Shown here piece after piece: positions 877 through 32,978 of a DNA stretch of 33,996 nucleotides. The translations under genes were made by a program, and so were the position numbers. The notes under the pieces are model-generated. The model saw only the letters and a program-made list of their open reading frames with translations. It was not told the DNA's origin and made no database searches. The stretch covers positions 1 to 33,996 of the forward strand of contig JACSSI010000001.1 of assembly GCA_014879345.1 (NCBI GenBank), written 5' to 3'. The DNA comes from Anaerolineae bacterium. Lineage in GTDB: Bacteria; Chloroflexota; Anaerolineae; Promineifilales; Promineifilaceae. The first letter of the stretch is position 1; every line of letters starts with the position of its first letter.

Positions 877-1629
877 ATGAAAGAAAAGGTTCAGATAGGC
901 GTCAGCATTCTTGCTCTACTCGCCTTGCTAACTTACACGCTGGTACATACCGGTGGTTTGTTAGCCCGTTACGTTCAACCACCAGTGATTGGCTACGTGG
1001 CTGCCTTTGGCATCGAAGCAGCCGTTGTCAGTTTATCACTGCGAATTGGTGAGCTACGGCGCAGTAAGCAATCAACCGGATTTTTCTTGTTTGTTCTAAT
1101 TGCCGTCGTCATCGTGTCGGCTGTGGCCAATATCGCAGAAGGGTTTACGGCCGTTCAGGGTGAACGGCTGACCACCCAAACCATTCGTCAACTAGATCCA
1201 ATTCAAGCGTTCATCGGTTTGGCCGCTACTGGACTGGTTTCATTGATTGTGCTGGCGTTGGCCGAAATAATTGGGACGGATGTGGAAACGGCCGTTCAAC
1301 AATCTGCCCAACAGCGGAAAATCCGGGCCGTTCATGCAAAAGACAAATCCATTCCCACTGCGGAAACAAAAACCAAGCCAGTGTCCAACACAGCAGAAAC
1401 GGACAGCATCGAACGGGCACGTATCGCCAAAGCGGAAAAGGATACCAACAGCAAAACGAAAGCCGTAAACGCCTTGTTGGTTTACCTGAACGACAATCCT
1501 CAAGCCAGTTTGTCAGATATTGGACAGCAGATTAACCGTTCTAAAACGACCGTGTCCAGCTACATGCACGAACTGGAACGGAACGGCCGTTTACAACGGA
1601 ACGGTGAAGGCTGGCAAGTTTTATCATGA
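877..1629 (+). CDS. integral membrane protein with C-terminal winged-helix DNA-binding domain
   Basis: 250 aa. About 4 hydrophobic helices in the N-terminal half, then a K/E-rich linker, then LSDIGQQINRSKTTVSSYMHELERNGRL (wHTH-like). GGAGG RBS 5 nt upstream. Stop overlaps the next start (ATGA at 1626). Confidence 0.6.
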   Translation: MKEKVQIGVSILALLALLTYTLVHTGGLLARYVQPPVIGYVAAFGIEAAVVSLSLRIGELRRSKQSTGFFLFVLIAVVIVSAVANIAEGFTAVQGERLTTQTIRQLDPIQAFIGLAATGLVSLIVLALAEIIGTDVETAVQQSAQQRKIRAVHAKDKSIPTAETKTKPVSNTAETDSIERARIAKAEKDTNSKTKAVNALLVYLNDNPQASLSDIGQQINRSKTTVSSYMHELERNGRLQRNGEGWQVLS

Positions 1630-2066
1630 AATCGTTCGGCGCCGTTCTCCTGTTACTCTGCCTATTGTGTCTGTTAGTGTTCAGTCTGAGTGTAGGAAGC
1701 GTCGGAAAACACGCTGTAGACGCCTGGGCCGAACAGGCTGGACAGCCTGACAGTGTCACAGACACCGTCAGGCAAAGTCGCCAAACCCCGCCCATTGAAC
1801 CGGTCTATCGTACCAACAGAGCCTGGTTTGGCGCAGGTTTGTTGGCCCTGGTGGTGCTGGTGATTGGTGCAATGCTCTTCATGATGCATGGTGGCACTGA
1901 GTTCTTACGGCAGTGGCGATTGACCCGGAAACGGCCGTTTTCTCGCCAACAGCATACCCCTCAACAAGTACCTTACCCGATCAACTGGCCAGAGTTGCCC
2001 CACGTACCCACAGTACGCTATCTGCCGGAGGTGGACGATGAACAAGTTGTGGATTCTTGGGATTAG
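1626..2066 (+). CDS. small membrane protein (two hydrophobic segments)
   Basis: 146 aa. N-terminal signal/TM MKSFGAVLLLLCLLCLLVFSL and a second TM AWFGAGLLALVVLVIGAMLFMM. Translationally coupled on both sides. Confidence 0.5.
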   Translation: MKSFGAVLLLLCLLCLLVFSLSVGSVGKHAVDAWAEQAGQPDSVTDTVRQSRQTPPIEPVYRTNRAWFGAGLLALVVLVIGAMLFMMHGGTEFLRQWRLTRKRPFSRQQHTPQQVPYPINWPELPHVPTVRYLPEVDDEQVVDSWD

Positions 2067-3549
2067 CCTGTTTTTGCTGGCTGCCTGCAACACACCGCCT
2101 AATGGCGGGCATATCTTGACTCCTAATGCCGGGGCAACTTTATCCGCTGCCGAAATCGTCCATCAGCAAGCGGTCAACGCCGCCACGGCTCAAGCTGTTG
2201 AGTTGGTCCGGCAGTCGGCACAGGCCACCCAGCAAGCCTTAGTCGTGACGCAAGCAGCCGAGGTTATCGCTACTGGTACAGCCCAAAGCATCACCCGGGC
2301 ACAGACAGCCACGGCTGAGTCGATGGCAGTTCAGGCCACCGTGCAAGCCCTGGCTAATCAGGCAACATTATCCTCTATCGCTGCCAATGCCACCGGAACG
2401 GCCGTTGCTCAGGCTGCGATCGTTGAGCAACACCTGATAGAAGACGAAGCCCACCGCCTCGCCTTGCAGCGCCAATCCGAAATCGCCACGCTGGAATACA
2501 GGCAAGCCATGAACCGGCTAAAACCATTGTTGTGGGGCGGTCTGGTTTTCGCATTCATCATCCTCGCCGCTGGAATTGCTTACCACCTGTACCAACGATC
2601 TCGCCCGATCACCGTCGCCGATGTCAACGGCCCGCGTGTTTTGATTCCGGCCAACAGTTGGCAAGTCCTACCAGCGCAACGAACACAACGCGCTTTGCCA
2701 GAGTTATTGGGGCCAGGAGAAACGGCCGTTCGCCCCATTCCGCTCCCTTCTCTAGACCATGGACATGTCCTCATCGCTGGCGAAACCGGCAGCGGCAAAA
2801 GCACAGCCATGTTAGCCATTTTGCAGCACCGCCGGCAAGTGGTCATCCTCGACCCACACGATACCCCAGGCAATTGGGGCAGCACGCAGGTCATCGGCGG
2901 AGGACGAGACTTCGAGAGCATCGGTCTCTATTTGCAGCAGATGCGTCAATTGCTCAGCAAGCGTTACCGCCAGCGAGCACAAGGCGCCACCCAATTCGAA
3001 CCACTAACCGTAGCCACCGATGAAATGCCCGCTATCGTCGCCGCTTTAGGGCAACGAGTAGATGAAGTATGGCGCGAATGGTTAAGGGAAGGGCGTAAAG
3101 TGGGGCTGTTTTTTGTCGTGTCCACCCAAAGCACGCGCGTTAGAACCCTGGGTATACGCGGCGAAGGCGATTTACTGGAGAATTTCAACTACGTTTTGCT
3201 TCTTGGCAAGTTAGCCGTCGCTCAATACCCGGATCTGACCCAACGCATGGAATGGCCGGCCGTCTTGCGCACCAATCGGGATATCCGCCCTGTTATCATT
3301 CCAGTCGAACGTTCCTCAACTGACAGACCAACTAACACATCCCCCCTCTTTATTGCGCCAATGCCACAATCATCCGGCTATGCCGATCCCAATAACCTCA
3401 CCGAAGCTGTCCGCGAACATATCCGACAATTAGCAAAAGAACTACCCAGTCAAAGAGCAATAGAAAGAACCGTATTTGGCTATACAGGAGGTGCTGCCTA
3501 CCAGGCAGTCAAGGAAACCTTAGATGCTACTACGGACCAACACATATGA
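2038..3549 (+). CDS. FtsK/SpoIIIE (TraB-like) P-loop ATPase with lipoprotein signal, A/Q/T-rich ectodomain and one TM
   Basis: 503 aa. Lipobox LLAAC at residues 13-17. Low-complexity A/Q/T region. TM LLWGGLVFAFIILAAGIAYHLY. Walker A GETGSGKST, Walker B-like VATDEMP, and VGLFFVVSTQS (FtsK-like motif). Confidence 0.7.
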   Translation: MNKLWILGISLFLLAACNTPPNGGHILTPNAGATLSAAEIVHQQAVNAATAQAVELVRQSAQATQQALVVTQAAEVIATGTAQSITRAQTATAESMAVQATVQALANQATLSSIAANATGTAVAQAAIVEQHLIEDEAHRLALQRQSEIATLEYRQAMNRLKPLLWGGLVFAFIILAAGIAYHLYQRSRPITVADVNGPRVLIPANSWQVLPAQRTQRALPELLGPGETAVRPIPLPSLDHGHVLIAGETGSGKSTAMLAILQHRRQVVILDPHDTPGNWGSTQVIGGGRDFESIGLYLQQMRQLLSKRYRQRAQGATQFEPLTVATDEMPAIVAALGQRVDEVWREWLREGRKVGLFFVVSTQSTRVRTLGIRGEGDLLENFNYVLLLGKLAVAQYPDLTQRMEWPAVLRTNRDIRPVIIPVERSSTDRPTNTSPLFIAPMPQSSGYADPNNLTEAVREHIRQLAKELPSQRAIERTVFGYTGGAAYQAVKETLDATTDQHI

Positions 3550-3637
3550 TTTCTCGCTACGGTAGTAGCATAGTAGCGCCGCTACACACCTATAGCAGCG
3601 CAAAACTATAAGCAAAATTTCAGAAAGGAGAAATTTG

Positions 3638-5311
3638 ATGAGCAAACTTGCAGCAATTTATGTAAGAACATCTTCCGAACAACAAGGCGAAAGAGTAAGT
3701 CCAGGGGAACAAGAACGTGATTGCCGTTTGCTGGCCGAACAGCAAGGGTTAACAGTCGTAGGTGTATACCGCGACATCGAGCGGTATCGCGCCAAGAAGC
3801 GCCTAGTCGACCCTTCGGGTAAGCGCACGGATCGCCCAGGCATGAACGCTATGCTCAAAGACGCAGTTGCAGGAAAGTTTGACACCATTCTAGCCTGGAA
3901 AGAAGATCGACTTTATCGAGGCCTGCGGGCTATGTTATATGTGCTCGATGTTGTGCAAGATCAGAAAATGACGATTTTGCTAGCACGAGAAAATTTCGAT
4001 CCCAAAATGGCTCCTGTAAAAGCCTGGGTCGCCGGTATGGAATTAGATTCATTAAACGAAAGAATGACTATGGGAGTTAAAGCCCGTTTGCGAGCCGGTA
4101 AGGCCAATACCGGACAAGATCGATATGGATATCAACGTGTTGATGAAAAAATCTTCATCGTTGAGGAAGAAGCCAAATGGGTGCGCAAGATTTTCCAATG
4201 GTATAATAATCGAGTGTCCATGATGGAGATCCGCCGACGGCTTATCGAAGCGGGCGCTCCTCAAAAAGGCTCAACTAAACCGAGGAAAATTGAATGGGCC
4301 ATAACCAGCATTCAGGGTGTACTGAAAGCCGCCTACGAATATTCGCACGGTATTAAAGTGCAAACCCGCGCTGGAGAAGCCTTTGAAATCCCTGTCGAAC
4401 CAATAATCTCTATTGAAACGTATCAACGGTATTTGGAAGTCAGAGAATCAAACAAATCTTATCCGGCGCGCAATGTCAAAAACGATTATCTAGTGGGTGG
4501 ATTGATCTATTGCCAATGTCCGCGAAAATGGGGTGCCCGGGGTAGTTCATACAAACATGGAAATAAGCGACGTGATTACCCAACCGGCGTTTACTATTGT
4601 GGTCAACGTCATGCAGAGGTAAGACATGCCCATTGTCCAAAAACAATTGGCAGTAAAAAGGCAGACGACTATGTCTGGTCGAAAATTGTAGAGGTCTTAA
4701 ACAATCCTGACGTATTAATTACCAGAGCAAGACGTTACGTGGAAGAACTGTGCCAGAAAACAGAAACGGCCGTTACCGAACAAGATGCTTTGCAAACAGA
4801 ATTCGACAAACTCCTTTCGGAGCGGCAATGGATCATCACACAAGCACGGAAAGGAAGAATCACTGAAGAAGATATGGAACAGCAGTTGGCTCAATTAACG
4901 ACACAAGAACAGTACCTGAAAAACGAACTGGCTGCCTTCGGCGCTATCCACGAGATGCGATTGCTGGAGAATTGGGAAAAAATTGCCGTAGAGTACCTGG
5001 CAAACTTACATGCTGGTCTTGGGTCCCTCAATGAAACACCAACTACTGATGAAGAAAAAAAGGGGCAATTTCAACTGAAAAGGGAAATGGTTTTGATGTT
5101 AGTAGAAAAAGTGCTGATTAAAGAAGAGAGGAAGATGGAGGTGATTTTCAAGTTAGATGTGTTGTCGCTGTTGGGATTACATATCGACAACACATCTAAC
5201 GGCAATGGTGGATCAAACGTTAATTCACAACTGGCTCAAAACAAATTGGTCGGAACTTGTAACCGTAAACGATCATCCCTTCCTCGCCATCGGTTCGCAG
5301 TTTGCGCGTGA
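3638..5311 (+). CDS. large serine recombinase (integrase)
   Basis: N-terminal resolvase motif AAIYVRTSSEQQ and DRLYRG. Recombinase domain, Cys/His zinc-ribbon region (YCQCP...YYCGQRH...HCPK) and C-terminal coiled coil. AAGGAG RBS lies 7 nt before the ATG at 3638 (the ORF track starts at TTG 3635). The last ~40 aa look like read-through into flanking DNA. Confidence 0.9.
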   Translation: MSKLAAIYVRTSSEQQGERVSPGEQERDCRLLAEQQGLTVVGVYRDIERYRAKKRLVDPSGKRTDRPGMNAMLKDAVAGKFDTILAWKEDRLYRGLRAMLYVLDVVQDQKMTILLARENFDPKMAPVKAWVAGMELDSLNERMTMGVKARLRAGKANTGQDRYGYQRVDEKIFIVEEEAKWVRKIFQWYNNRVSMMEIRRRLIEAGAPQKGSTKPRKIEWAITSIQGVLKAAYEYSHGIKVQTRAGEAFEIPVEPIISIETYQRYLEVRESNKSYPARNVKNDYLVGGLIYCQCPRKWGARGSSYKHGNKRRDYPTGVYYCGQRHAEVRHAHCPKTIGSKKADDYVWSKIVEVLNNPDVLITRARRYVEELCQKTETAVTEQDALQTEFDKLLSERQWIITQARKGRITEEDMEQQLAQLTTQEQYLKNELAAFGAIHEMRLLENWEKIAVEYLANLHAGLGSLNETPTTDEEKKGQFQLKREMVLMLVEKVLIKEERKMEVIFKLDVLSLLGLHIDNTSNGNGGSNVNSQLAQNKLVGTCNRKRSSLPRHRFAVCA

Positions 5312-5630
5312 CCATTTCCACTGGCATCCCAATGTAGGCTTCATCCAGAGCCATATCCGTCAATTGTGCGGTGACAATGGGCCCTTCTTCCAATTTAATC
5401 AAGGCCACCTGATAGGGGGCATTGTGTTCAAAACCGGCTGGTGCGTCATAGATAGTGGTATAAGAGAAAACTTCACCTAAACCAGTGAAGGTATATAGTT
5501 CTTGAGCCGGTGCTTCACATTCTAAGCAAACATCACGGGGCGGAAATAATTTAACTCCACAAGAGTCACAGGTCTCCCCCACTAATTCATATCGTTGTTT
5601 TTGTAATCGCCAATGGCGTGAAACTTCCAT
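5220..5630 (-). CDS. DUF35 Zn-ribbon/OB-fold protein (thiolase/HMG-CoA synthase complex subunit type)
   Basis: 136 aa. CDSCGVKLFPPRDVCLEC rubredoxin-like C-x2-C-x10-C-x2-C followed by an OB-fold-type C-terminal half ending YGYKFRP. Adjacent to the thiolase and HMGCS genes. Confidence 0.85.
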   Translation of the reverse strand: MEVSRHWRLQKQRYELVGETCDSCGVKLFPPRDVCLECEAPAQELYTFTGLGEVFSYTTIYDAPAGFEHNAPYQVALIKLEEGPIVTAQLTDMALDEAYIGMPVEMVTRKLRTDGEEGMIVYGYKFRPICFEPVVN

Positions 5631-5833
5631 TATTATTTTCCTATCCTCCGAATAATTACGAAGATTTAAATTTTCGTTTTCCTAATGAACTAAGAGTTTC
5701 CAGTAGTGTATTATGCACACTTTTGCTTTCATTCCCTGCCAGAGTACAGGCAAAATACTGTCAAAAGCTATCATTGGTATAAAAAAGCGTTATTTGTTCA
5801 TGTTTTGTTAATAATTAGCACAACTATCGCACA

Positions 5834-6988
5834 TTAGTCGCGGATTTGCAAAATATGGGTAACGGCCGTTCCCCCACTGCCGCCTATATTCTGAGCCATG
5901 CCGATTTTTGCATCGGCAATCTGACAAGCACCCGCCTGACCGCGTAATTGACGCACCACTTCGACAATTTGGTACATGCCCGTCGCGCCACCTGGATTGC
6001 CCCGTGCTTTAAGGCCGCCAAATGTGCTGATGGGTAAACGGCCGTTTCTTGCAATCTCCCCATCCCGAGCCATCTGCCAACCCTTGCCCCGTTCCGCAAA
6101 GCCAGTCGCTTCCAGAGACAACGCCGCCATAATCGTGAACGAATCATGCAGTTCAAACAGGTCAATGTCATCATGCACCACGCCTGCCTGTGCCATCGCT
6201 TTCTGCGCACTCAACTCAGCCGCCTTCAACCACAATAAGTCGCGCCGATCATGCAGCGCAAACGCATCCGTGGCAATCGCCGAGCCAACAATTTCCACCG
6301 GCTGTGGCACCATGTCCATCGCCCGTTCCTTACTTGTCACAATAACGGCCGCTGCCCCATCAGCCAGGGGTGCCATATCAAACAGACTCACCGGATCAGC
6401 CACCAGTGGCGCAGAAATAAAACTCTCCGCCCGCAGCCGATTGCGGAACATCGCCAGCGGATTATCCGCGCCATTGGCATGAGCATTCACACTAAAACCA
6501 GCAAAATCCGCCAATTCTACGCCATGCTCATACATATAGCGCCGCATAATCAACGCTCCCATACCGGCCGTTGTTAACCCCTGCATCATTTCGTAGTCGG
6601 TATCAAGACCCGTTGCCAGGGCGCGTGTGACAGAAGCGCCTGTCTGGTCTGTCATTTTCTCCACACCTACAGCCAGCGCCGTTTTCACCATGCCGCTTTT
6701 CACAGCCAACACCGCTTGTCGCAGCGCCGCGCCACCAGACGCATCAGCCGCCTCCACCGTCACCGCTTCAATGCCGCGCATCCCGGCAAAATCTGCCACC
6801 AATGCGCCCAAATGGTTTTGCTGGCTCAGTTCACCAGCCAGCATATTGCCCACAAACAGAGCATCCACCTTACTTACGTGAGCATCATCCAGCGCCGCCT
6901 CAATCGCATACCACGACAGATGACGGATGGAGGTTTCCCACATTTCTTTCACTTCGGTTTGGCCTACGCCAATAATTGAAACATCCAT
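5834..6988 (-). CDS. thiolase-fold protein (archaeal/SCP2-type acetoacetyl-CoA thiolase homologue) with non-canonical active-site residues
   Basis: Start reassigned to MDVSIIGVGQT (ATG at 6986-6988, GAGGA RBS). Family motifs VEKMT, DGAAAVIV, GGLKA-G-P-GATG and NIGGSGGT are present. However VEAADASG has Asp where the Cys nucleophile is expected, HDSF replaces HDCF, and GNP replaces GHP. Confidence 0.85.
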   Translation of the reverse strand: MDVSIIGVGQTEVKEMWETSIRHLSWYAIEAALDDAHVSKVDALFVGNMLAGELSQQNHLGALVADFAGMRGIEAVTVEAADASGGAALRQAVLAVKSGMVKTALAVGVEKMTDQTGASVTRALATGLDTDYEMMQGLTTAGMGALIMRRYMYEHGVELADFAGFSVNAHANGADNPLAMFRNRLRAESFISAPLVADPVSLFDMAPLADGAAAVIVTSKERAMDMVPQPVEIVGSAIATDAFALHDRRDLLWLKAAELSAQKAMAQAGVVHDDIDLFELHDSFTIMAALSLEATGFAERGKGWQMARDGEIARNGRLPISTFGGLKARGNPGGATGMYQIVEVVRQLRGQAGACQIADAKIGMAQNIGGSGGTAVTHILQIRD

Positions 6989-7009
6989 ACTGACATTTCC
7001 TCGATTATC

Positions 7010-7070
7010 TAGTGCGTAGTGCGTAATGCGTAAGCCGTTTAACGCTACGCAATACGTACTACGCACTACT
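7010..7070. repeat. Intercistronic hairpin built from TAGTGCG-type heptamers and their complement
   Basis: Left arm TAGTGCGTAGTGCGTAATGCGTAAGC, right arm GCTACGCAATACGTACTACGCACTA. About 22 of 25 positions pair. It fills the HMGCS-stop to thiolase-start gap. Confidence 0.75.
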
Positions 7071-7072
7071 GT

Positions 7073-8146
7073 TTATAGTTTTAATTTATCCCGATAGCGG
7101 GTATAGGTGGCGTAATCAATTTCCGTGCGGCGGGCGATATACCCTTCCGTAGAAATGGCACGGCCGCGCACTTCTGGCAGTTTTTCGGTGACTTGCAGAT
7201 CGAAGGCGTCTGAACCGGCGCCAGAGCCATAGCTCACCATCAAAATGCGGTCGCCCGGTTTGGCAATATCCAGAATGGCCGTAAGACCAATCATCGTGGA
7301 GCCAGAGTAGGTGTTGCCAATGCGGGGACTGAGCAGCCCGGGCGCAATTTTTTCAGGCGTAAAGCCTAACGATTTGGCGGCACGCTGCGGGAATTTGGCA
7401 TTAGGCTGATGAAAGACTGCCCAGTCATAATCGGCGGCTGTGCGGCCAATAGCGTTCATCAGCATCTCAGACGCGCCCATGACGTGTTTGAAATAGGCTG
7501 GCTCACCCGTAAAACGGTCGCCATGCGAGGGATAGTCTTCATGCGCCCGTCGCCAGAAGTCGGGCGTATCGGTGACAAAGGAGTAGGAGCCGTTGATAAT
7601 GGCAACCGATTCGTCGGCTGGGCCGATGAGGGTAGCCGCGCCACCAGCCGCTGCTGTGTATTCCAGGGCATCGCCCGGACGACCTTGAGCGGTGTCCATA
7701 CCGATGCTCAAGGCATAACGCGCCATACCAGAGCCAACGAAGGCAATCGCAGCCTGCATCGCTTCGGTGCCTGCTTTACAGGCGAATTCCCAGTCAGCAG
7801 CCTGGGTATTTGGCACAGCGCCAATTGCTTCGGCAACGGTGGTACTGGTTGGTTTGACGGCGTAGGGGTGGCTTTCGCTGCCTACCCAGACGGCGCGGAT
7901 CTCTTGCGGATTGATTTGGGCGCGTAACATGGTGTTGCGTGCCGCTTCAATCGACATGGTGATCACGTCTTCGTCCAGGCCATTGACTGCTTTTTCTTTG
8001 ACAGGCGAGCCACCGGTGCCACCCGTCCACATGCGCGAGATTTCCTCGCCTCTAATACGATAGCGTGGCACATAAGCGCCATACCCGACGATGCCAACGG
8101 GTCGGTCGGGTTTCATGAGTCCATCTGAGGGGTTGTAGTTGTTCAT
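7073..8146 (-). CDS. hydroxymethylglutaryl-CoA synthase (archaeal type)
   Basis: 357 aa. [15 protein letters not shown], catalytic-Cys motif [19 protein letters not shown] and GNTYSGS. GAGGA RBS. Confidence 0.9.
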
Positions 8147-8153
8147 GTTTCCT

Positions 8154-8214
8154 CGTAGTGCGTAGTGCGTAGTGCGTATTTCGTCGGATTACGGAATACG
8201 CACTACGCACTACG
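8154..8214. repeat. Intercistronic hairpin (TAGTGCG)n / (CGCACTA)n
   Basis: Arm 8161-8184 (CGTAGTGCGTAGTGCGTATTTCGT) pairs with arm 8191-8214 at 23 of 24 positions; loop is CGGATT. It fills the HMGR-stop to HMGCS-start gap. Confidence 0.8.
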
Positions 8215-8215
8215 A

Positions 8216-25261: not shown

Positions 25262-25298
25262 TTTGGGCATGTACCGCGAAGATCGCGGAGGTTTTGAG

Positions 25299-25340
25299 AA
25301 TGGCAGCTATGCGATTGAGTTGTGTAGCTGCCATTTTTTA
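25299..25340 (+). terminator. rho-independent terminator of the acyl-CoA dehydrogenase gene
   Basis: AATGGCAGCTA (25299-25309) and TAGCTGCCATT (25325-25335) form the stem, followed by TTTTTTA. Confidence 0.75.
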
Positions 25341-25357
25341 TTTGTTCCGAAAATAGG

Positions 25358-25396
25358 TGGATTTATCCGCAGATTTCGCAGATGACGCAGATTTTT
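25358..25396 (+). repeat. Nonamer tandem repeat (CGCAGAT-NN) x3, preceded by GGATTTATC and followed by a T-run
   Basis: CGCAGAT at 25368-25374, 25377-25383 and 25386-25392, with an exact 9-nt period. Confidence 0.85.
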
Positions 25397-25445
25397 AGTC
25401 GAGTGATTTTTTGGGTCGGGCGTGAACGGACTGGCGTGAAATTCG

Positions 25446-25991
25446 CTAATTGAAAGTTAGCCATTCATCCTGCAAGATGGCGTACAGGTATTCACTACAC
25501 CAGTTGCCTTTGAACCAGATGTTGTCAATAAAATGAGCCTCACGCCTCATGCCGACCCGTTTGAGCAGCCTTGCCGACGCGATGTTTTTGACATCACAAA
25601 CGGCCGTTACCCGATGCAGTGCTAAATCTTCAAACAAGTACCTCAACAAGCGGTTGACAGCTTCACTGGCATAACCAAATCCCTGATGGCTGCGCGCAAA
25701 CGAAAATCCGATTTCTGCCTGCCGCTTATCGTGCGCCAGGGTATGAAAGGCACAATCGCCAATCATGGCTCCCGTTTCTTTCAACGCCACCGCAAACTGA
25801 TACCATCTTCCATCTGTTCCAGGAGTTGATTGCATCATTTCTTTGATAAAGGCTTCGGCTTTTTCGACGGTGTATGGCATCTCCCAGCCTTGATAGCGGG
25901 CAACTTCGGGATCAGAGCGATAGGCTAGAAATGATTCGAGGTCGGATGGCTGGAAGGGTCGTAATTTCAGGCGCTGCGTTTCAAGAATCAT
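25446..25991 (-). CDS. GNAT-family N-acetyltransferase (RimJ/RimL-like)
   Basis: 181 aa. TQRLKLRPFQPSDLESFLAYRSDPEVARY is the N-terminus typical of this subfamily. Acetyl-CoA-binding region GFGYASEAVNRLL. Confidence 0.85.
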   Translation of the reverse strand: MILETQRLKLRPFQPSDLESFLAYRSDPEVARYQGWEMPYTVEKAEAFIKEMMQSTPGTDGRWYQFAVALKETGAMIGDCAFHTLAHDKRQAEIGFSFARSHQGFGYASEAVNRLLRYLFEDLALHRVTAVCDVKNIASARLLKRVGMRREAHFIDNIWFKGNWCSEYLYAILQDEWLTFN

Positions 25992-26032: not shown

Positions 26033-27016
26033 TTAGTCGGCCGACAAGGTACTCAAAGGCAATGGTTCTAAACGTTTCTGCTTCGCCAGGCGACCCTCAT
26101 ACACACGCAAGAACACTACCCCACTCATTATCAGCAAGCTACCAGCTAATTGAGTTACCGTCAACCGCTCACCTAATAAAATGATAGCTAAAACGGCCGT
26201 GAACACCGGTTCAGTTGTCAGAATTAAGTTGACGACACTGGCTGGCAACAAACTTAAACTGACGTTGTACAATCCAAATCCAGTAACCGTCGGTCCGGCC
26301 GCCAGCAGGAGCAAAACGCCCCACCCCGCCAACGAACTGCCCAGCACAAAAAAGTCGGATGGCTGGGCAGCCGTGCCTGGAATGAGATCGCCTGGCAGCA
26401 AGTTGATGAGCAGGAGGAAAACGGTAGCAAAACTGAAGGTGTAGAGCAGTGTCGTCCACGGATTGAGGCCGCGTTGAGAAGCGGCACGTCCCATCAAACT
26501 GTAAATGGCATAGCCCAGTCCAGACAACACACCAGCCAGAATTCCCAGTAAATTTGTCTGCCAGACAGCCGGATTTAGCGCACCAGAAACCAGGACACAG
26601 CCAGCTAAACAGAGGGTGACAGCCACGATTTTGCCCCAATCGAGCCGTTCTTTGAGCAGCCACCAGCCCAGCAAGGCGGTGAACGCGGCCGAGCAGTAGA
26701 CCAACACGGTGGCAACGGCCGCCCCGTTTTGCGCCACTGACAACGTCCACAAGGAATTGAAGACAGCCAGGACTAGTCCATAAATTGCCAGGTAGCCCCA
26801 ATGGGTACGCGGCACATGCAATAGTTTGCGCTTAAACAAAGCTAATGCCACCAACAGCGTCAGCACGACAAATAAGGCACGCCAAAAGGCCAATACCAGC
26901 GGCTCGATAGCATAATTTTGGGTGAGGTAACGGATGAAAACGGCCGTTGTCGATAATAGAACAGCGCTAATCAGGGCAACGGTATAACCGCGTGTGAGGG
27001 TTGATTGTGATGACAT
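26033..27016 (-). CDS. DMT-superfamily transporter (EamA/RhaT type)
   Basis: 327 aa, about 10 hydrophobic helices in two homologous halves. Confidence 0.85.
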   Translation of the reverse strand: MSSQSTLTRGYTVALISAVLLSTTAVFIRYLTQNYAIEPLVLAFWRALFVVLTLLVALALFKRKLLHVPRTHWGYLAIYGLVLAVFNSLWTLSVAQNGAAVATVLVYCSAAFTALLGWWLLKERLDWGKIVAVTLCLAGCVLVSGALNPAVWQTNLLGILAGVLSGLGYAIYSLMGRAASQRGLNPWTTLLYTFSFATVFLLLINLLPGDLIPGTAAQPSDFFVLGSSLAGWGVLLLLAAGPTVTGFGLYNVSLSLLPASVVNLILTTEPVFTAVLAIILLGERLTVTQLAGSLLIMSGVVFLRVYEGRLAKQKRLEPLPLSTLSAD

Positions 27017-27089
27017 CCCCTTATTTTAATGCAAATTGGCATGAGGAGTAGAGCCAATAACGGCCGTTTTTCAGCATACCAATCACGGC

Positions 27090-27773
27090 TTATAACTTTC
27101 GCTGCTTGAGGGTGTAGACCTCATTCAAATGCACCAGGTTATGCCGTGTAGGCGGCATGAGCAGCAAACCAGCAAGAGTGCAGCGGCTCCAGTATTCGAG
27201 AATACTACCAGCTTCAGGCACCAGAACGCCTTCGTCCATGATTTGTTGCAGACGGTCTGCTTCTGTTTTTTGCTTGAAGTCGGTAAAGGGCAGCGTGGAG
27301 ATGATTACTTGGGTGCGTTTGCCAACGGCCGTTCTGTATTCCCGCAGCGCCACCACATCAACTTCTTCACTCAGCTTTACCACATCTGCCATCGGAATGT
27401 CGTTGCCCGAGTTGATGAAGGGGGCATTTAGCCGCTGCTGCCAGTTGTCTTCATTAAAAAGCTGAGGCTGCCCGGCTACCAGCAAGTTCATCGTAGCGTC
27501 TTCAATCCGCGCCAAAAGCCAAATATTCCAAGCAATGGAATGTTCGCCGTTTGGGGGAATTCGCCGCCATTTATCTTCTGGTAAATCGTCTAAAAGGTCA
27601 TCTTCGTAAGACCAGTCAACAGGACTGACTTTAGCAGAATGTAGAACGCTGTGCTGCTGCATAAACAGGTCAATGGCGTGCGCCTGTTGGGTTTTATCGT
27701 TTAAGGCAGCCCGTAATTCTTTTTGTTGGGCGCTCCATGCTTTCCGGAAAGTTTTGATGTCTATCATCGGCAA
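27090..27773 (-). CDS. DinB-family (DinB_2-like) helical-bundle protein
   Basis: 227 aa. HSIAWNIWLLARIED resembles the DinB-family helix-2 motif. Confidence 0.55.
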   Translation of the reverse strand: MPMIDIKTFRKAWSAQQKELRAALNDKTQQAHAIDLFMQQHSVLHSAKVSPVDWSYEDDLLDDLPEDKWRRIPPNGEHSIAWNIWLLARIEDATMNLLVAGQPQLFNEDNWQQRLNAPFINSGNDIPMADVVKLSEEVDVVALREYRTAVGKRTQVIISTLPFTDFKQKTEADRLQQIMDEGVLVPEAGSILEYWSRCTLAGLLLMPPTRHNLVHLNEVYTLKQRKL

Positions 27774-27845: not shown

Positions 27846-28781
27846 TTATGGTTGTAATAAGGCTTTATCAAAAAAGTTGATGACATTAGTTTCATACACT
27901 TCTGGGGCATCTCGCCAACCGCCAATATGGTCTGATTCGGCAAACACCAGCAGCTCTTTGGGGTCTGTGGCGTGGTTCAGAAAGTAGTCCATCCGATGTC
28001 GCTCAAATGAATCACCGCTGCTAATGAGCAATAACGGCCGTTCTCCCAGCATCGGCAGCACATCAATTAAAGCTAGTGGCTCGGTTACGCCTGTGTGCAT
28101 GGGCAAGAATTGATAATACATGAAGTCAACAGGTACATAGAGCCATTCATTCAAAGTTTCAGGAGGAGGCCAATCAGAAACGGCCGTTGCCCCTGGCCCA
28201 TCTGCCACGACCGCCTTCACATTTTCATCCTGTGCCGCCCCCATGATGACCACCTGCGCCCCCAACGACCAACCCAACGCCCCAATCCGTTCAGGATCTA
28301 CATCTGGTCTGGCCTGCAAATAGGCAGCCGCGGCAACCACATCCTCAGCTTCTGGTCCGCCATAGGGCACAATATCACCATCACTATCCCCATGTCCCCG
28401 TAAATCGAATAACAGCACACCATAGCCTGCCTCTGCCAGACCTTTTGCCAACCCCAACATAGACAGACGATTGCCATTTATGCCATGCAAAAGCATCACA
28501 GCCGCTTCGTTTTCTCCGGGAATGTACCAGCCATGCAGTGTTAAGCCATTAGCCGTTTCAAATGTGACTTCTTCGTAATCGAGGCCAAAATCTGCGGGCG
28601 TTTCACAACAGGGTGATTGACGACTAGGGTGAGTGTGAGCTGAGGCAGTAAGGTAGGGATAGGCAATCAATTGTAAACACAGATAGCCGATAAACAGTGC
28701 AGCTAACAAAAAGAGCAAAATATTGCGCCAATAATTTTTAGGGCTCGATTTCTTTATCATCCGACTAAAATAACTGACCAT
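27846..28781 (-). CDS. alpha/beta hydrolase with N-terminal membrane anchor
   Basis: The ATG at 28779-28781 is preferred (AGGTGA about 10 nt upstream) over the TTG at 28802. TM LLFLLAALFIGYLCLQLIAY, HG oxyanion motif LLHGINGN, nucleophile elbow GWSLGA, and a C-terminal DH. Confidence 0.8.
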   Translation of the reverse strand: MVSYFSRMIKKSSPKNYWRNILLFLLAALFIGYLCLQLIAYPYLTASAHTHPSRQSPCCETPADFGLDYEEVTFETANGLTLHGWYIPGENEAAVMLLHGINGNRLSMLGLAKGLAEAGYGVLLFDLRGHGDSDGDIVPYGGPEAEDVVAAAAYLQARPDVDPERIGALGWSLGAQVVIMGAAQDENVKAVVADGPGATAVSDWPPPETLNEWLYVPVDFMYYQFLPMHTGVTEPLALIDVLPMLGERPLLLISSGDSFERHRMDYFLNHATDPKELLVFAESDHIGGWRDAPEVYETNVINFFDKALLQP

Positions 28782-28870
28782 TATTTTATTGTCACCTGAC
28801 AAATGTCATCATTCTGTCACAACTGATTTACTACTGGTCAATTTAAGTCGCTGACTGCATAATTCCAAGC

Positions 28871-30001
28871 ATGAACTTAATCCTGCACATCACCACACGC
28901 TCAGACTGGGAAACCAGCACTTCGACAAGCTCAGTGAACACCGTTTCCCATCCTCCGTATACTGCCAAAAGCCTGCAAACTGAAGGCTTCATCCACTGCT
29001 CCACACCAGCACAAGTACTCATGCCAGCCAACGCCATGTTCAAAGGGCAAACTGACCTCCTGCTGCTCTGCATCGACGAGGATTTGGTGGCGGCAGACGT
29101 GGTTTATGAAGATTGTTATGAATCAGGCACAGCCTTTCCCCACATCTACGGCCCGATCAACCTGGATGCGGTGCTGGGTGTGGTAGATTTCCCGCCCAAC
29201 GCCGACGGCTCTTTCAACTTGCCCACGCTCATCACCCTCGCCGCCGCTCCCATTCTGAATTTCGATCCCAACCCGGTAGCCGTGCTGCAACCCGAGCATA
29301 TCCTGCAAAAGCAAGATATCAGCGAATATTGTGTGCTTTGTTTCTTCCAGGGTGTCATTACAGAACTGGTGGAAAACGGCCGTTTACACCAGGTTTATCA
29401 GCTTGGTTCAGAACGCGGCCCCAACCCAGTCTATGAAATGGAAGTCGAAGGCAAACGCATCGTCGTCATGCATCCCAACGTGGGCGCACCGATTGCCGCC
29501 GGTTTCATGGATGAGTTGATCGCGCTGGGCTGCCGCACGTTTATCGCGGCTGGCGGCTGTGGTGTGTTGAGCCAAGAGATTGGTGCCGGACATGTGATCA
29601 TCCCCACAACGGCCGTTCGGGATGAAGGCACCTCTTATCATTACCTGTTGGCTGGGGAGGAAGTGTTTGCGTCGGAAACGGCCGTTCACGCCCTCAAAAC
29701 CACCCTCGACCACCACCACGTCCCCTATGTCACCGGCAAAACCTGGACCACCGACGCTCCTTACCGCGAAACGCGCAAACTCGTCAGTCAACGCCAGGCC
29801 GAGGGCTGCCTCACCGTCGAAATGGAAACCGCCGCCTTCTTCGCTGTGGCTCAGTTCCGGGGTGTCACCTTCGGCCAAATTCTCTATGGCGGCGACGACC
29901 TCACCGGTGATGAATGGGACGGTCGCAGTTGGCAAAAGATGCGTTCCACCCGCGAAAAGCTGTTTTGGCTGGCCGTAGAGTCTTGTTTGAGACTAGCATA
30001 A
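28871..30001 (+). CDS. DUF952 domain fused to a PNP/UDP-family nucleoside phosphorylase domain
   Basis: 376 aa. The N-terminal ~115 aa (ILHITTRSDWE...LQTEGFIHCSTPAQV...FPHIYGPINLDAV) is DUF952. The rest (VVMHPNVGAPIAA, IAAGGCG, IIPTTAVRDEGTSYHY, VEMETAAFFAVAQ) is the PNP_UDP_1 fold. Confidence 0.8.
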   Translation: MNLILHITTRSDWETSTSTSSVNTVSHPPYTAKSLQTEGFIHCSTPAQVLMPANAMFKGQTDLLLLCIDEDLVAADVVYEDCYESGTAFPHIYGPINLDAVLGVVDFPPNADGSFNLPTLITLAAAPILNFDPNPVAVLQPEHILQKQDISEYCVLCFFQGVITELVENGRLHQVYQLGSERGPNPVYEMEVEGKRIVVMHPNVGAPIAAGFMDELIALGCRTFIAAGGCGVLSQEIGAGHVIIPTTAVRDEGTSYHYLLAGEEVFASETAVHALKTTLDHHHVPYVTGKTWTTDAPYRETRKLVSQRQAEGCLTVEMETAAFFAVAQFRGVTFGQILYGGDDLTGDEWDGRSWQKMRSTREKLFWLAVESCLRLA

Positions 30002-30073: not shown

Positions 30074-31711
30074 GTGTTAACCATTCAAGATGTGTCCGTG
30101 ACATTTGCTTCACGAACGTTGTTTAAAGATGTCAATCTAAAATTCTTACCTGGCAGTTGCTATGGCATGATTGGGCCAAACGGTGCCGGTAAATCCACCC
30201 TGCTCAAAGTCATCGCTGGTGAAATTGAAGCCAATAAAGGCACCATTTCTGTGGGGACTAATGAACGCATTGCCTTGCTACAACAAGATCAATTCGCCTT
30301 TGATGACCATCCCGTTTTAGAAACGGTGATCATGGGTTATCCACGCCTGCACGAGGTGCTGCAAGAACGGGAAACCATCTACAGCAAGCCAGATTTCTCT
30401 GAGGAAGATGGCATGAAAGCGGCCGAGTTGGAAATTGAACTGGCCGAGATGGATGGCTATGATGCCGAAGCAGAAGCGGCCGTTTTGCTAAACAATTTGG
30501 GCATAGACGAATCTCTGCACCACCTGTATATGCGCGAACTTGAAGCCAATCAGAAGGTACGGGTGCTGCTGGCTCAAGCCTTGTTTGGCAGTCCTGATAT
30601 TTTGCTGCTTGATGAGCCAACCAACCAACTTGACTTGACCTCGATTGCCTGGCTGGAAGATTTCTTGTTCCGCTTTCCCAACACCGTTATTGTTGTCTCC
30701 CATGACCGCCACTTTTTGAACAATGTCTGCACCCACATCGCTGATATTGATTTTGGCAAGATTCAGCTTTTTGTAGGTAATTATGATTTTTGGTATCAGG
30801 CCAGCCAGTTAACCCAGACCCAACGCCAAAATGAAGACAAGAAACGGACAGACCGCATCAAGGAGTTGGAAGAGTTTGTGCGCCGGTTTAGTGCCAACGC
30901 TTCCAAATCACGCCAGGCCACATCGCGTAAAAAGCTGATTGAAAAGCTGACGATTGAGGATTTGCCGGAATCGTCACGCCGGTTTCCCTATGTGGATTTC
31001 AAACCAGAACGGCCGTGTGGCAAAGTCATTTTGGATATAGAGCAGTTGAGTGTCACCTTAGATGAGCGCCCTTTGCTCCAAGATTTCAGCCTATCAGTGC
31101 GCCCTGGTGACAAAATCGCCTTCATCGGCCCAAATGACCTCGTCAAAACAACACTGTTTCAAATCCTGATGAATGAGCTGAAGCCAGATTCAGGTGAATT
31201 CAAGTGGGGTACGACGATTACGACCTCCTATTTTCCCAAGGAAAATTCCGCCTACTTTGACACGGGTTTGAATTTGGTTGACTGGCTGCGGCAATATTCG
31301 CTGGTGGATGACAGTGAAACGTTTGTACGCGGCTATTTAGGACGGATGTTGTTTTCTGGTGAAGAAGCGTTGAAATCGGCGCGGGTATTGTCTGGGGGCG
31401 AGAAAGTGCGCTGTATGCTGGCACGGATGATGCTGAGTGGCGCGAATGCGTTGGTTTTGGACGAGCCTACGAATCATTTAGATCTTGAGGGGATAACGGC
31501 CGTTAACGATGGCCTTATCAATTTTACCGGTGTCATACTCTTTACATCTCATGATTATCAATTCGTCGATACCATTGCCAACCGCATCGTAGAAATCGCG
31601 CCAGGTGGCGTTATCGACCGCGCCATGAGCCTTGAGCAATATATCGAAGACCCAACTGTACAAGAACTGCGTGACCAGTATTACCGGGGTCACCAAAATA
31701 TGCGCATTTAG
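30074..31711 (+). CDS. ybiT: ABC-F family ATPase, YbiT-like
   Basis: 545 aa, GTG start with GGAGAG RBS. Two ABC cassettes (GPNGAGKST and a degenerate second Walker A; LSGGEKVR). Linker RFSANASKSRQATSRKK. Collinear similarity to E. coli YbiT as I recall it. Confidence 0.85.
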   Translation: MLTIQDVSVTFASRTLFKDVNLKFLPGSCYGMIGPNGAGKSTLLKVIAGEIEANKGTISVGTNERIALLQQDQFAFDDHPVLETVIMGYPRLHEVLQERETIYSKPDFSEEDGMKAAELEIELAEMDGYDAEAEAAVLLNNLGIDESLHHLYMRELEANQKVRVLLAQALFGSPDILLLDEPTNQLDLTSIAWLEDFLFRFPNTVIVVSHDRHFLNNVCTHIADIDFGKIQLFVGNYDFWYQASQLTQTQRQNEDKKRTDRIKELEEFVRRFSANASKSRQATSRKKLIEKLTIEDLPESSRRFPYVDFKPERPCGKVILDIEQLSVTLDERPLLQDFSLSVRPGDKIAFIGPNDLVKTTLFQILMNELKPDSGEFKWGTTITTSYFPKENSAYFDTGLNLVDWLRQYSLVDDSETFVRGYLGRMLFSGEEALKSARVLSGGEKVRCMLARMMLSGANALVLDEPTNHLDLEGITAVNDGLINFTGVILFTSHDYQFVDTIANRIVEIAPGGVIDRAMSLEQYIEDPTVQELRDQYYRGHQNMRI

Positions 31712-31832: not shown

Positions 31833-32120
31833 TGGGTCTAATCGCTTTGAATTTTTATCGTTAGCATCGGATAACGGCCGTTATCCTCCCAAGCCGCCGC
31901 TCAAATCATTGAAGACTTACAAGTGTGGCGTATGCACACTCCTGAGCCAAAAGATGTGTTAGCCGCTATCAAACTGCAAACACGCTACCAAACCTCTTTC
32001 TGGGACGCGATGATTATCCAAAGTGCCATCCAGTTAAAATGTGTCACCCTCTGGTCAGAAGATTTAAACGCCGGACAACTATTTCAAAGCGTTTCGGTTG
32101 AAAGTCCATTTGCAGATTAA
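31833..32120 (+). pseudogene. PIN-domain (VapC-like) toxin remnant
   Basis: The C-terminal half is intact in frame (RPLSSQAAAQIIEDLQVW...YQTSFWDAMIIQSA...LWSEDL). Upstream there is only a fragment, VGLIALNFYR, then stops, including a TAA at 31872. The N-terminal ~50 aa and the partner antitoxin are missing. Confidence 0.6.
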
Positions 32121-32140: not shown

Positions 32141-32147
32141 TTCAAAT

Positions 32148-32420
32148 ATGAATGCGTTAACGATTGAATATTCAGAAGAATTGCTATGGGCATTGCAACA
32201 AGAACCAGACGAATTCGCCATTGAAGCACGACTGCTCTTAGCCATCAAATTATATGAAACGGGCAAACTGAGCACAGGTTTGGCCGCACAGTTTGCTGGC
32301 ATACCACGCAGTGCCTTTTTCTACGAGTTAAGCCGTCAGGGCATATCCCCCTTTGGCGAAACACCAGATGAATTAGAGGACGATCTTAAACATGCCCGCC
32401 GGGCCAGTCATTCTGAATAA
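32148..32420 (+). CDS. UPF0175-family antitoxin
   Basis: 90 aa. LLAIKLYETGKLSTGLAAQFAGIPRSAFFYELSRQGISPF matches the UPF0175 HTH pattern. Overlaps the downstream DUF3368 gene. Confidence 0.75.
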   Translation: MNALTIEYSEELLWALQQEPDEFAIEARLLLAIKLYETGKLSTGLAAQFAGIPRSAFFYELSRQGISPFGETPDELEDDLKHARRASHSE

Positions 32421-32877
32421 CACACCACTGGTGGCGTTATGGCTTCTAGACCAACTCCCCTTATTGCAACACTTATTCGGTCAAGTGCTTATTCCAACTG
32501 CGGTTCATGATGAATTTCTCGCCATCGAGCAATCTACTCGTCAACAAGCATTAGCCACATCTCCCTGGATTCAAACAACCCCTTTATCAAATCCCCAAAC
32601 AGCACAAATATATATTGGCTTGGATCGTGGAGAATCAGAGGTGTTGGCGTTGGCTTTGGAACGTTCAGCCCGACTCGTCATCATGGATGAACGCAAAGGG
32701 CGGCGATATGCAAAGCGCTTGGCATTGCCCTTAACTGGTTCATTGGGAATTCTGTTGCTGGCAAAAGAAAAGCAGTTGATCTCAGATGTTGCACCTGCTA
32801 TTGAACAATTACAGGCCAACAACCTTTACTTCGACCCTCAACTAATTGATCATGTTTTACAATTAGCGAGAGAATAA
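32392..32877 (+). CDS. DUF3368 PIN-like nuclease toxin
   Basis: 161 aa. VILNNTPLVAL...GESEVLALALE...LVIMDERKGRRYAKRL...GSLGILLLAKE is typical of DUF3368 partners of UPF0175. Confidence 0.75.
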   Translation: MPAGPVILNNTPLVALWLLDQLPLLQHLFGQVLIPTAVHDEFLAIEQSTRQQALATSPWIQTTPLSNPQTAQIYIGLDRGESEVLALALERSARLVIMDERKGRRYAKRLALPLTGSLGILLLAKEKQLISDVAPAIEQLQANNLYFDPQLIDHVLQLARE

Positions 32878-32978
32878 CAACGGCCGTTTCGATAAGCTCA
32901 AGACAAGCCGTTTCTTCCCCACCCCGTGTTATAATCTCCATACCACTCATTTCCCACCTAAATTAAGGAGTTCAGCCC

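Follow-up and report, generated by a model that had tools for sequence, protein, structure and literature searches.

A HIP-type iterated palindrome with a CGGCCG core in uncultured Anaerolineae (Chloroflexota)

An Iterated Palindrome in Chloroflexota

A single 10-base perfect palindrome, AACGGCCGTT, is scattered in 40 exact copies over JACSSI010000001.1, a metagenome contig of 33,996 bases that was taken whole for all counts and is called the window below. This decamer is securely recognised as the local form of a word of the highly iterated palindrome (HIP) type in Chloroflexota of the Promineofilaceae/Ardenticatenales group, in which a CGGCCG core is framed by a flank dialect particular to the lineage. 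The core is an EagI-type site. For about 30 years HIP1 has resisted explanation, and it has been regarded as a peculiarity of cyanobacteria; the HIP literature treats the phenomenon as cyanobacterial (PMC4390886, PMC5861425, bioRxiv 10.64898/2026.06.24.733823). An earlier note on this DNA did not recognise the word as described. The literature agrees with it so far: no description was returned by searches for the word as decamer or octamer, for CGGCCG in combination with Chloroflexi, or for iterated palindromes in combination with Chloroflexota taxa, most subscription journals lying outside their reach.

The copies amount to 1.18 per kb, the first beginning at 1287 and the last occupying 32879-32888. 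Shuffles that preserved the dinucleotides contained 0.04 copies of AACGGCCGTT on average and never more than one. When one mismatch was allowed, 48 matches were counted against 1.16 expected, which leaves eight one-mismatch copies. Shorter and longer forms are nested in each other: the window holds 64 CGGCCG hexamers, 45 octamers ACGGCCGT, 40 decamers, 8 12-mers AAACGGCCGTTT, and 2 14-mers GAAACGGCCGTTTC, the latter beginning at 11143 and 17002. The most frequent 6-, 8-, and 10-mers of the window are all derived from AACGGCCGTT. The comparison with Markov expectations, which the earlier note had called for genome-wide, was run on the window, and models trained on it expect 0.04 copies at order 1, 0.09 at order 2, 0.23 at order 3, 2.0 at order 4, and 11.3 at order 5; the order-4 and order-5 models contain the sub-words of AACGGCCGTT itself, and their expectations are inflated thereby. 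Our recount agrees with that note on the 40 exact and eight one-mismatch copies between 1287 and 32888, on the eight 12-mer and two 14-mer extensions, and on the presence of copies in genes on both strands, in genes of a mobile element, and in intergenic DNA. The excess, put there at more than 1000-fold over chance, is upheld at about 1000-fold (40 against 0.04).

The eight 12-mers match the number given by independent flank preferences (8.9, the product 21/40 x 17/40 x 40), so the firm unit is the decamer, with a weaker, graded preference outside it. Open reading frames (ORFs) on both strands contain 35 of the 40 copies, six of them in the genes of an integrative element, and the other five are intergenic. 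Copy spacing over 14-34 kb is Poisson-like (coefficient of variation 0.90 vs 0.95) and indistinguishable from random.

Reading Frames and Origin by Substitution

All three phases are used by the copies in ORFs. The most common reading is xxA-ACG-GCC-GTT, which encodes Thr-Ala-Val (TAV; 24 copies), followed by AAC-GGC-CGT-T for Asn-Gly-Arg (NGR; 7 copies) and xAA-CGG-CCG-TTx for Arg-Pro-Phe/Leu (4 copies). The effect shows in the encoded proteins. The TAV tripeptide occurs 28 times in the window proteins against 4.4 expected from composition, and its five permutations occur 2-8 times each. The word encodes 26 of these 28 TAV and all seven NGR. All 26 are written as exactly ACG-GCC-GTT, out of 64 codon triplets that could encode TAV, so it is the word that produces the tripeptide excess and not the reverse. 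In 26 motif-rich related loci (134,000 codons), TAV reaches 6.3 and NGR 5.4 times expectation, whereas motif-free relatives show 0.7 and 0.9 times. The amino-acid changes forced by the word, a 5-6-fold excess of TAV and NGR, are a measurable cost for which any model has to account. Caution is also needed in annotation, as conserved TAV or NGR “motifs” in these proteomes are driven by DNA and are not functional protein motifs.

The alignment of orthologues of the MoeA-PBP fusion gene indicates how the copies were formed. The word occupies identical columns in as many as 24 genomes, with no insertions or deletions (indels) at the sites. Outgroup genomes that lack the word encode xAV or xGR at these columns, the residue x being variable (E, A, D, S, K, Q; A, L, V), and the motif-rich genomes arrived at TAV and NGR by convergence. 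The lack of indels and the variable first residue of the outgroups show that copies are made by point substitution at pre-existing partial matches, including amino-acid-changing substitutions at tolerant positions, and not by insertion. HIP1 is likewise described as spreading by substitution in Robinson 1997, as summarised in bioRxiv 10.64898/2026.06.24.733823. The pressure acts on the DNA itself, as the word is found in three frames, in spacers, in the integrative element, and in phage structural genes. A comparison of coding with non-coding DNA gave densities of 1.70 and 1.21 per kb, respectively.

A trivial cause, such as a dispersed mobile repeat (a miniature inverted-repeat transposable element, MITE, or a repetitive extragenic palindrome, REP), an adapter or assembly artefact, or a bias in codons or dipeptides, has a virtually negligible probability. 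Raw repetition is all that speaks for it. No sequence is conserved past about 16 bp, orthologue alignments lack indels, and the word, present in three frames and in spacers, is itself what drives the tripeptide excess. The identical window sequence was found in two independent Logan assemblies, and the word is in frame in conserved genes of about 30 independently assembled metagenome-assembled genomes from various studies and sequencing platforms, which rules out an assembly or adapter artefact. Mobile repeat, artefact, and codon bias are all refuted by these results.

Conservation of the Core and the Flanks

Conservation was compared with two syntenic relatives, loci L083 and L084, which have 75-79% nucleotide identity to the window (about 77%) over 14-15 kb. 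Between the window and these loci, the decamer is retained in 81-100% of cases and all other 10-mers in 8-11%. Of 25 octamer positions compared, 13 are common to all three, and the retained copies include two intergenic ones (14262 and 18407). A copy, once formed, is kept far better than the surrounding sequence. The mapping onto orthologues that the earlier note had asked for has thus given conserved copies well above the background of 10-mers.

Imperfect copies differ at their edges. All eight one-mismatch copies of the window depart from the decamer at base 1, 2, 9, or 10 and leave the core CGGCCG untouched. The outer base 1 is changed in TACGGCCGTT (1146-1155) and GACGGCCGTT (23467-23476), base 2 in ACCGGCCGTT (6563-6572) and AGCGGCCGTT (30475-30484), base 9 in AACGGCCGCT (6344-6353), and base 10 in the three copies of AACGGCCGTG (12965-12974, 26192-26201, and 31008-31017), the first of which is identical in L083 and reads AACGGCCATG in L084. 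In 144 kb of pooled DNA with the same dialect, outer one-offs are found at 6-64 times expectation, except for ACCGGCCGTT, and every core one-off is at background. The octamer behaves in the same way in 457 kb of pooled related DNA, where one-offs are enriched at the outer positions only and core one-offs are at background. Words that differ from the core by one base are neither clearly depleted nor enriched.

At sites shared with L083 and L084, the single-base differences within the core are all C<->T (AACGGTCGTT; AACGGCCATT/AACGGCCATG). A codon alignment of 25 genomes contains one-step variants with A>G at a flanking A (4), C>T at the first core C (2), and C>T at the fourth core C (3). Reading the methylated base from such substitution spectra was rejected, because the single-step core differences, C<->T in every case and placed at the first or the fourth C, number about seven, which is too few.

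The flank preference before CGGCCG fades gradually outward (G, G/A, A, A, A) and gives a 16-bp symmetric consensus, GGAAACGGCCGTTTCC. This graded consensus is present in non-coding and coding DNA alike. The same asymmetry of core and flanks exists around CGATCG in HIP1, and it is the basis of Elhai's methyltransferase-centred argument (PMC4390886).

Lineage Dialects and Avoidance of the Core

The distribution of the word was surveyed in 80 orthologous loci. The octamer ACGGCCGT occurs at 1-2.5 per kb in about 30 genomes with a GC content of 47-58%, which fall into one cluster when MoeA identity is compared. The closest orthologues of the MoeA-PBP protein of the window belong without exception to uncultured Chloroflexota, under the labels Ardenticatenaceae, Promineifilaceae, or Anaerolineae. 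The top identity is 80% among species-representative genomes and 86-88% in metagenome assemblies (one labelled Promineofilaceae). Judged by these orthologues, the host of the window is an uncultured bacterium of the Promineofilaceae/Ardenticatenales type (Chloroflexota, Anaerolineae).

The flanks of the core differ between lineages. The group of the window uses the dialect AA..TT, loci L018/L019 use CA..TG or none, L059 uses TT..AA with a T..A octamer, and a high-GC group (L028, L051) uses C..G. In L072 and L080, the bare CGGCCG is enriched 14-17 times over expectation with no flank preference. CGGCCG is nearly absent from other Anaerolineae: it was counted 0 times against 28 expected in L066, 0 against 13 in L070, 1 against 20 in L044, and 1 against 11 in L076. 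The observed/expected ratio for CGGCCG across Anaerolineae runs from 0 to 17, so that opposite extremes are met within one class. The near-absence in L066, L070, and L044 is the usual signature of a restriction enzyme with that specificity. An enzyme specificity for CGGCCG probably circulates in Anaerolineae, in some lineages in the form of restriction.

In the window and in the metagenome contigs L162, L167, L186, L197, L203, L209, and L210, CGGCCG is the sole strongly enriched palindromic hexamer, and most others are depleted. The avoided words include AAGCTT (0 vs 9.5 expected), GGATCC (0 vs 6.2), CAGCTG (1 vs 15.7), CTGCAG (1 vs 11.3), CCGCGG (0 vs 29), and GGGCCC (1 vs 38), and GTGCAC and ACGCGT are absent. 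This avoidance suggests that restriction-modification weighs heavily on the lineage. Practical use can also be made of the word and its dialects. As a strong marker, they lend themselves to the binning of contigs of Promineofilaceae, a family with filamentous members common in wastewater plants, and to the assignment of phages and plasmids to these hosts.

The Word in Mobile DNA

The integrative element at the left end of the window carries 8 decamers in 12.8 kb (0.63 per kb), about half the density of the rest. Viral contigs were scanned for two AACGGCCGTT decamers within 31 bases, which gave 32 stretches, and in about 20 of them the octamer density is 0.9-3.7 per kb; the viral and metagenomic loci were chosen by the word itself, so such densities are biased upward and do not serve for comparison with host densities. 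Phage modules among the viral matches (large terminase, portal, protease/major head (capsid), and tape measure) contain 2-5 octamers per gene. Control scans of viral DNA with two other dialects mostly returned the two seeded copies only, the exceptions being L121, L133, and L140, which shows the viral result to be specific to AACGGCCGTT. The metagenome scan gave at least 120 stretches, of which at least 72 are motif-rich, from sediment, wastewater, and other samples.

A word of this kind could serve as a signal for DNA uptake or transformation, similar to the DNA uptake sequence (DUS) of Neisseria and the uptake signal sequence (USS) of Pasteurellaceae. A receptor at the surface or in the periplasm, or a methylation-dependent step of transformation, would then favour DNA with the word, and repeated uptake and recombination of DNA of the cells' own kind would act as a molecular drive. 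The density of about 1 per kb is DUS- or USS-like, the word lies in all frames and skews the tripeptide content, its lineage dialects resemble those of DUS, and the graded, extended consensus is typical of recognition by a protein. HIP1 itself has been proposed to act in methylation-dependent transformation (bioRxiv 10.64898/2026.06.24.733823), and USS and the HIP1 decamer share a pattern of mismatch load (Bakkali 2007, PMC1939737). We nevertheless hold an uptake signal to be unlikely. Known uptake sequences are not palindromic, and a receptor would leave unexplained the match of the core to a type II site from which sister lineages keep away. In phage structural genes the density of the word is like that of the host, a finding that a drive through uptake explains only for prophages that recombine with the host.

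Some mobile elements contain arrays of the word. The 1.4-kb metagenome contig L223 carries a truncated small parA gene with at least 18 octamers upstream of it (620-1400), spaced at 26-28 bp in the unit AACGGCCGTTTGTGGG. In L263 (4597-5839, equal to L264 35-1227), 8+4 copies are placed in a 1.8-kb gene-free stretch upstream of parA, in the longer iteron unit CCACACGGCCGTTTCCCGGCCTGCCCC. This parA belongs to a phage- or plasmid-like element and is 77% identical to the parA of L223, and a small gene overlaps its end; the parA relatives in L265 and L266 have no array. A further cluster is found in L250 (8331-8844), where 10 copies of AAAACGGCCGTTTY lie in an 850-bp spacer at irregular distances of 33-90 bp, about 10 times the usual density. 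The arrays upstream of parA look like the protein-bound iterons of partition or replication. They could also be iterons that merely took in the favoured word.

These arrays bear on another explanation, in which selection would favour the word as the site bound by an abundant DNA-binding protein that acts as a dimer (nucleoid-organising, partition-related, or engaged in self-recognition or defence), with sites kept over all resident DNA. A symmetric consensus that weakens outward across 16 bp, non-coding DNA included, would be expected of such a protein, and the very strong positional conservation, which extends to intergenic copies, is consistent with it, as are the parA arrays with their 26-28-bp spacing (L223) and 8+4 copies (L263/L264), the 10-copy cluster of L250, and the carriage of the word by phages and the integrative element. 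However, chromosomal copies are spaced as at random, coding DNA is filled as densely as non-coding DNA at a real cost to proteins, and the bare CGGCCG enriched 14-17-fold in other lineages is too short for a dedicated operator. The parA arrays lose weight if they are iterons that incorporated the favoured word of the host, and a candidate protein was not found. We regard a binding protein as an improbable driver, on a par with an uptake signal.

The occurrence of the word in phages, mobile elements, and the chromosome, together with its lineage-specific sequences, is also reminiscent of Chi. A recombination or anti-degradation signal read by an enzyme of the RecBCD/AddAB type would shield the cell's own DNA and the phages that mimic it. 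This seems highly improbable, as Chi is an asymmetric, orientation-biased sequence of 5-8 nt with few-fold enrichment, and the word is a 10-nt palindrome enriched about 1000-fold, with no sign of strand or orientation dependence in the data.

Proposed Mechanism and the Search for the Enzyme

The putative driver of the word is a core-specific cytosine methyltransferase coupled to biased mismatch correction. It is a reading on which we are nearly evenly divided, with doubt slightly ahead. It is favoured because the asymmetry of core and flanks is strict, the core is a type II site avoided by sister lineages, all resident DNA is affected, and there is a parallel in HIP1. A sequence-specific enzyme system would read the CGGCCG core, and the likeliest candidate would be a solitary cytosine methyltransferase of EagI-type specificity. 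Its coupling to mismatch correction might take the form of a very-short-patch-like restoration of T:G to C:G or of a methyl-directed choice of strand, as in Elhai's ratchet for HIP1. One-off sequences would be turned into perfect sites and decayed sites would be repaired, and the word would ratchet up to about 1-2 per kb in any DNA resident in these cells. The methylated word may also tag “own” DNA in recombination or uptake. The properties of HIP1 and the methyltransferase/ratchet model are set out in PMC4390886 and its conservation in PMC5861425, and a role of HIP1 in methylation-dependent transformation is now proposed in bioRxiv 10.64898/2026.06.24.733823.

The enzyme was sought with regular expressions for the motifs of 5-methylcytosine (m5C) and N4/N6 methyltransferases, and by tblastn with approximate sequences of M.HhaI, M.HaeIII, and E. 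coli Vsr as queries. No methyltransferase, Vsr, or MutH-like gene tied to the word was found, and none was present in either the window or the 1.6 Mb of related loci. In motif-rich DNA across the 1.6 Mb of loci and 0.64 Mb of metagenome matches, no methyltransferase or Vsr was found except for an m5C methyltransferase in L209 (10143-12251). This enzyme aligns over its full length with M.HaeIII and adjoins an endonuclease of the SdaI/PstI/BsuBI type, and the members of its family, met with in Oscillochloris, Calothrix, Blastocatellia, and Betaproteobacteria, share 60-70% identity. It was rejected as the driver: it belongs to a mobile restriction-modification pair of the SdaI/PstI type that is spread over phyla and does not track the word. 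An N4/N6 methyltransferase in the viral locus L112 is unrelated and forms part of a restriction-modification pair of the MvaI/BcnI type. On this motif-rich viral contig, the MvaI/BcnI-type endonuclease, the N4/N6 methyltransferase, and an IS1595 transposase stand side by side (8314-10738), near genes for an M23 peptidase and an HNH endonuclease.

The outcome of this search, including the loss of the L209 enzyme as a candidate, weighs against a methyltransferase with coupled repair, and three further observations do so as well. Elhai's rule of a G before the methylated C has no fit to flanks of A, T, and C, and would fit only if the inner C of GGCC were methylated. The graded preference that extends to 16 bp in GGAAACGGCCGTTTCC, in non-coding DNA too, is more like that of a dimeric DNA-binding protein than of a typical type II methyltransferase. 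A hint of a binding protein also comes from the word arrays that lie upstream of parA in mobile elements. Uptake drive and binding protein may both make downstream use of the same mark, an argument now advanced for HIP1.

A wider picture may be offered, which we consider tentative and rather doubtful. Anaerolineae would have an independent counterpart of HIP1 at the scale of the phylum, a family of CGGCCG dialects copied by phages and by plasmid-like and integrative elements. A dedicated reader, either a pair of methyltransferase and repair enzyme or a binding protein, would use the words as a barcode of own versus foreign DNA in repair, recombination, uptake, or partition, and those sister lineages in which CGGCCG is shunned altogether would be armed with restriction of the same specificity. 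The candidates for the machinery would be genes whose occurrence follows the word and its dialects in the two phyla alike, whether methyltransferases, repair nucleases, competence genes, or binding proteins.

Location of the Copies in the Window

In the left part of the window, copies of the integrative element lie at 1287-1296 (TAV) and 1582-1591 (NGR) in ORF 877-1629(+), at 1930-1939 (Arg-Pro-Phe) in ORF 1626-2066(+), at 2397-2406 and 2721-2730 (both TAV) in ORF 2038-3549(+), and at 4765-4774 (TAV) in the serine recombinase gene 3635-5311(+). The thiolase gene 5834-7066(-) contains copies at 5861-5870 (TAV) and 6037-6046 (NGR). Both copies of the HMG-CoA reductase gene 8216-9568(-) have counterparts in L083 and L084, the one at 8599-8608 (NGR) as the kept copy and the one at 9009-9018 (Arg-Pro-Phe) as the kept octamer. 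The copies in ORF 9679-11463(+) occupy 9963-9972 (TAV; kept in L084), 10290-10299 (TAV; aligned with a copy in L083 and L084, weakly so in L083, where the gene is absent and gaps lie nearby), 10929-10938 (TAV), 11145-11154 (TAV; part of the GAAACGGCCGTTTC from 11143), and 11287-11296 (NGR; AACGGTCGTT at this site in L084). The adjoining response-regulator/ParA-like gene 11460-12590(-) has a copy at 11739-11748 (TAV; kept in L083 and L084), and ORF 14557-15243(-) has one at 14878-14887 (TAV).

The MoeA-PBP gene 16393-18402(+) contains copies at 16519-16528 (NGR), 16536-16545 (TAV; AACGGCCATT in L083), 17004-17013 (TAV; part of the GAAACGGCCGTTTC from 17002), 17139-17148 (TAV), 17457-17466 (TAV), and 18330-18339 (TAV). 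The column of the first reads NCGGCCGN in 22 orthologues (20 as ACGGCCGT), that of 17139-17148 in 24 (22 as ACGGCCGT), and that of 18330-18339 in 23 (22 as ACGGCCGT). In the PHP-domain gene 18481-19413(+), the copy at 18777-18786 (TAV) is absent from L083 and L084, owing to a lineage-specific gain or to their loss, and the copy at 19331-19340 (Arg-Pro-Leu) is kept in both. The copy at 20621-20630 (NGR) in the SpoU methylase gene 20063-20911(+) is likewise kept in both.

The longest decamer-free stretch follows, at 20631-25598 (4,978 bp). A gap that large has P=0.07, and neither it nor any regular spacing is significant, so both were rejected as features of the word. The genes within it encode a metallophosphoesterase, malate dehydrogenase, and acyl-CoA dehydrogenase and, where present in L083/L084, are octamer-free too; by analogy, avoidance in highly expressed genes, as reported for HIP1, may be reflected here.

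To the right of this gap, copies lie at 25599-25608 (TAV) in ORF 25446-25991(-), at 26939-26948 (TAV) in the EamA transporter gene 26033-27016(-), at 27324-27333 (TAV) in the DinB-like gene 27090-27773(-), and at 28033-28042 (Arg-Pro-Leu) and 28179-28188 (TAV) in the hydrolase gene 27846-28802(-). The DUF952/phosphorylase gene 28871-30001(+) holds copies at 29375-29384 (NGR), 29608-29617 (TAV), and 29677-29686 (TAV), and the ABC-F ATPase gene 30074-31711(+) holds one at 31495-31504 (TAV).

Among the intergenic copies, 14262-14271 lies 4 nt past the stop of a 94-aa ORF (14276-14560(-)) and 18407-18416 lies 4 nt past the MoeA stop codon, and both are kept in L083 and L084. The copy at 27059-27068 is 21 nt past the stop of the DinB-like gene, and the one at 31873-31882 is inside an 18-bp palindrome, GGATAACGGCCGTTATCC. 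The last copy, 32879-32888, starts 2 nt after the stop of ORF 32392-32877(+), with 1 nt between. Four of the five (14262, 18407, 27059, and 32879) are thus 2-21 nt downstream of a stop codon, which may be due to chance, the intergenic regions being short.

Gene Content of the Window

The genes of the window are an ordinary bacterial housekeeping set, which includes the MoeA-PBP fusion, malate dehydrogenase, acyl-CoA dehydrogenase, and the ABC-F ATPase. The integrative element forms the left contig end (1-5311) and adjoins the mevalonate operon. Its genes encode a winged helix-turn-helix protein (877-1629), an ATPase-like protein (2038-3549), and a serine recombinase (3635-5311), and in the independent assembly L081 (1-7465) the element goes on for another 7.4 kb upstream, with a DUF3854 protein and an HTH_17 excisionase-like gene. 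The operon at 5220-9568(-) is a mevalonate module of the archaeal type in a bacterium and is syntenic in L083/L084; its members are a DUF35/ChsH2-like OB protein, thiolase, HMG-CoA synthase, and HMG-CoA reductase. At 11460-12590(-), a response-regulator receiver domain is fused to an ATPase of the ParA/MinD/BcsQ type, and this gene is conserved and syntenic in L083 and L084. The sole RNA gene found in the window, tRNA-Lys(UUU) at 16232-16307, is without the word.

Comparison with Known Systems

The DUS of Neisseria and the USS of Pasteurellaceae resemble the word in density, in the use of several frames within genes, in the effect on peptides, in dialects of related lineages, and in gradual substitution (PMC1939737). 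They are asymmetric words of 9-12 nt with a known competence system and occur in both orientations, often as inverted pairs at gene ends. The word described here is a perfect palindrome, is also present in phage structural genes, and shows no paired-terminator arrangement. It differs from REP and MITE repeats, whose conserved units are longer, mostly intergenic, and present or absent as insertions, as its flanks are unrelated beyond the weak 16-bp symmetric preference, 35 of the 40 copies lie in ORFs, and indels are lacking. Chi sequences are asymmetric, biased in orientation, and modestly enriched, whereas the word is palindromic and enriched about 1000-fold.

Very-short-patch repair at the Dcm sites of E. 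coli is a precedent for an excess of words made by repair. Its bias reportedly leads to an excess of CCWGG and a deficit of CTAG, as is said to be described by Bhagwat and McClelland 1992 and by Merkl 1992. In that system, T:G correction linked to a methyltransferase pushes near-matches to the methylated site. The effect is few-fold on 4-5-mers, compared with about 1000-fold on a 10-mer here, and no Vsr homologue was found in the motif-rich loci searched.

HIP1 of cyanobacteria, on which Robinson 1995 is reportedly a source as well, provides the remaining comparison. HIP1 and the alternate iterated palindromes of cyanobacteria (Elhai 2015, PMC4390886; Xu 2018, PMC5861425) differ from the present word in several respects. 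The core here is CGGCCG and the host lineage is Chloroflexota, Anaerolineae, as opposed to CGATCG/GATC and cyanobacteria; no cognate methyltransferase was found in the window and related loci; and the flanking base is A, T, or C instead of the G of HIP1, so that Elhai's G-methyl-C rule is not directly transferable. The likenesses are extensive. Both are GC-rich palindromes of 8-10 nt and the most abundant words of their length, at about 1 per kb. HIP1 occurs at 300-2700 per Mb, and of the Synechocystis decamer GGCGATCGCC there are 5648 copies where 5 are expected (PMC1939737). The word is the most over-represented one of its length in the window at 1.18 per kb, with 1-2.5 octamers per kb in relatives, within the roughly 0.3-2.7 per kb that is characteristic of the HIP class. 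Both arise by substitution without indels in coding and non-coding DNA, are conserved in orthologous positions above background, and have one-offs at the outermost bases around a 6-bp type II site, and in both the palindromic extensions and lineage derivatives share the core. The HIP1-like reading proposed in the earlier note is therefore sustained in abundance, in substitution without indels, in the use of all frames and spacers, in positional conservation, and in outer-base one-offs around a type II-like core. As HIP1 proper is GCGATCGC and cyanobacterial, AACGGCCGTT of Chloroflexota is an analogue of it and not a member. Such a second system, built on another word and found in an unrelated phylum, would mean that cyanobacteria are not alone in having the phenomenon.

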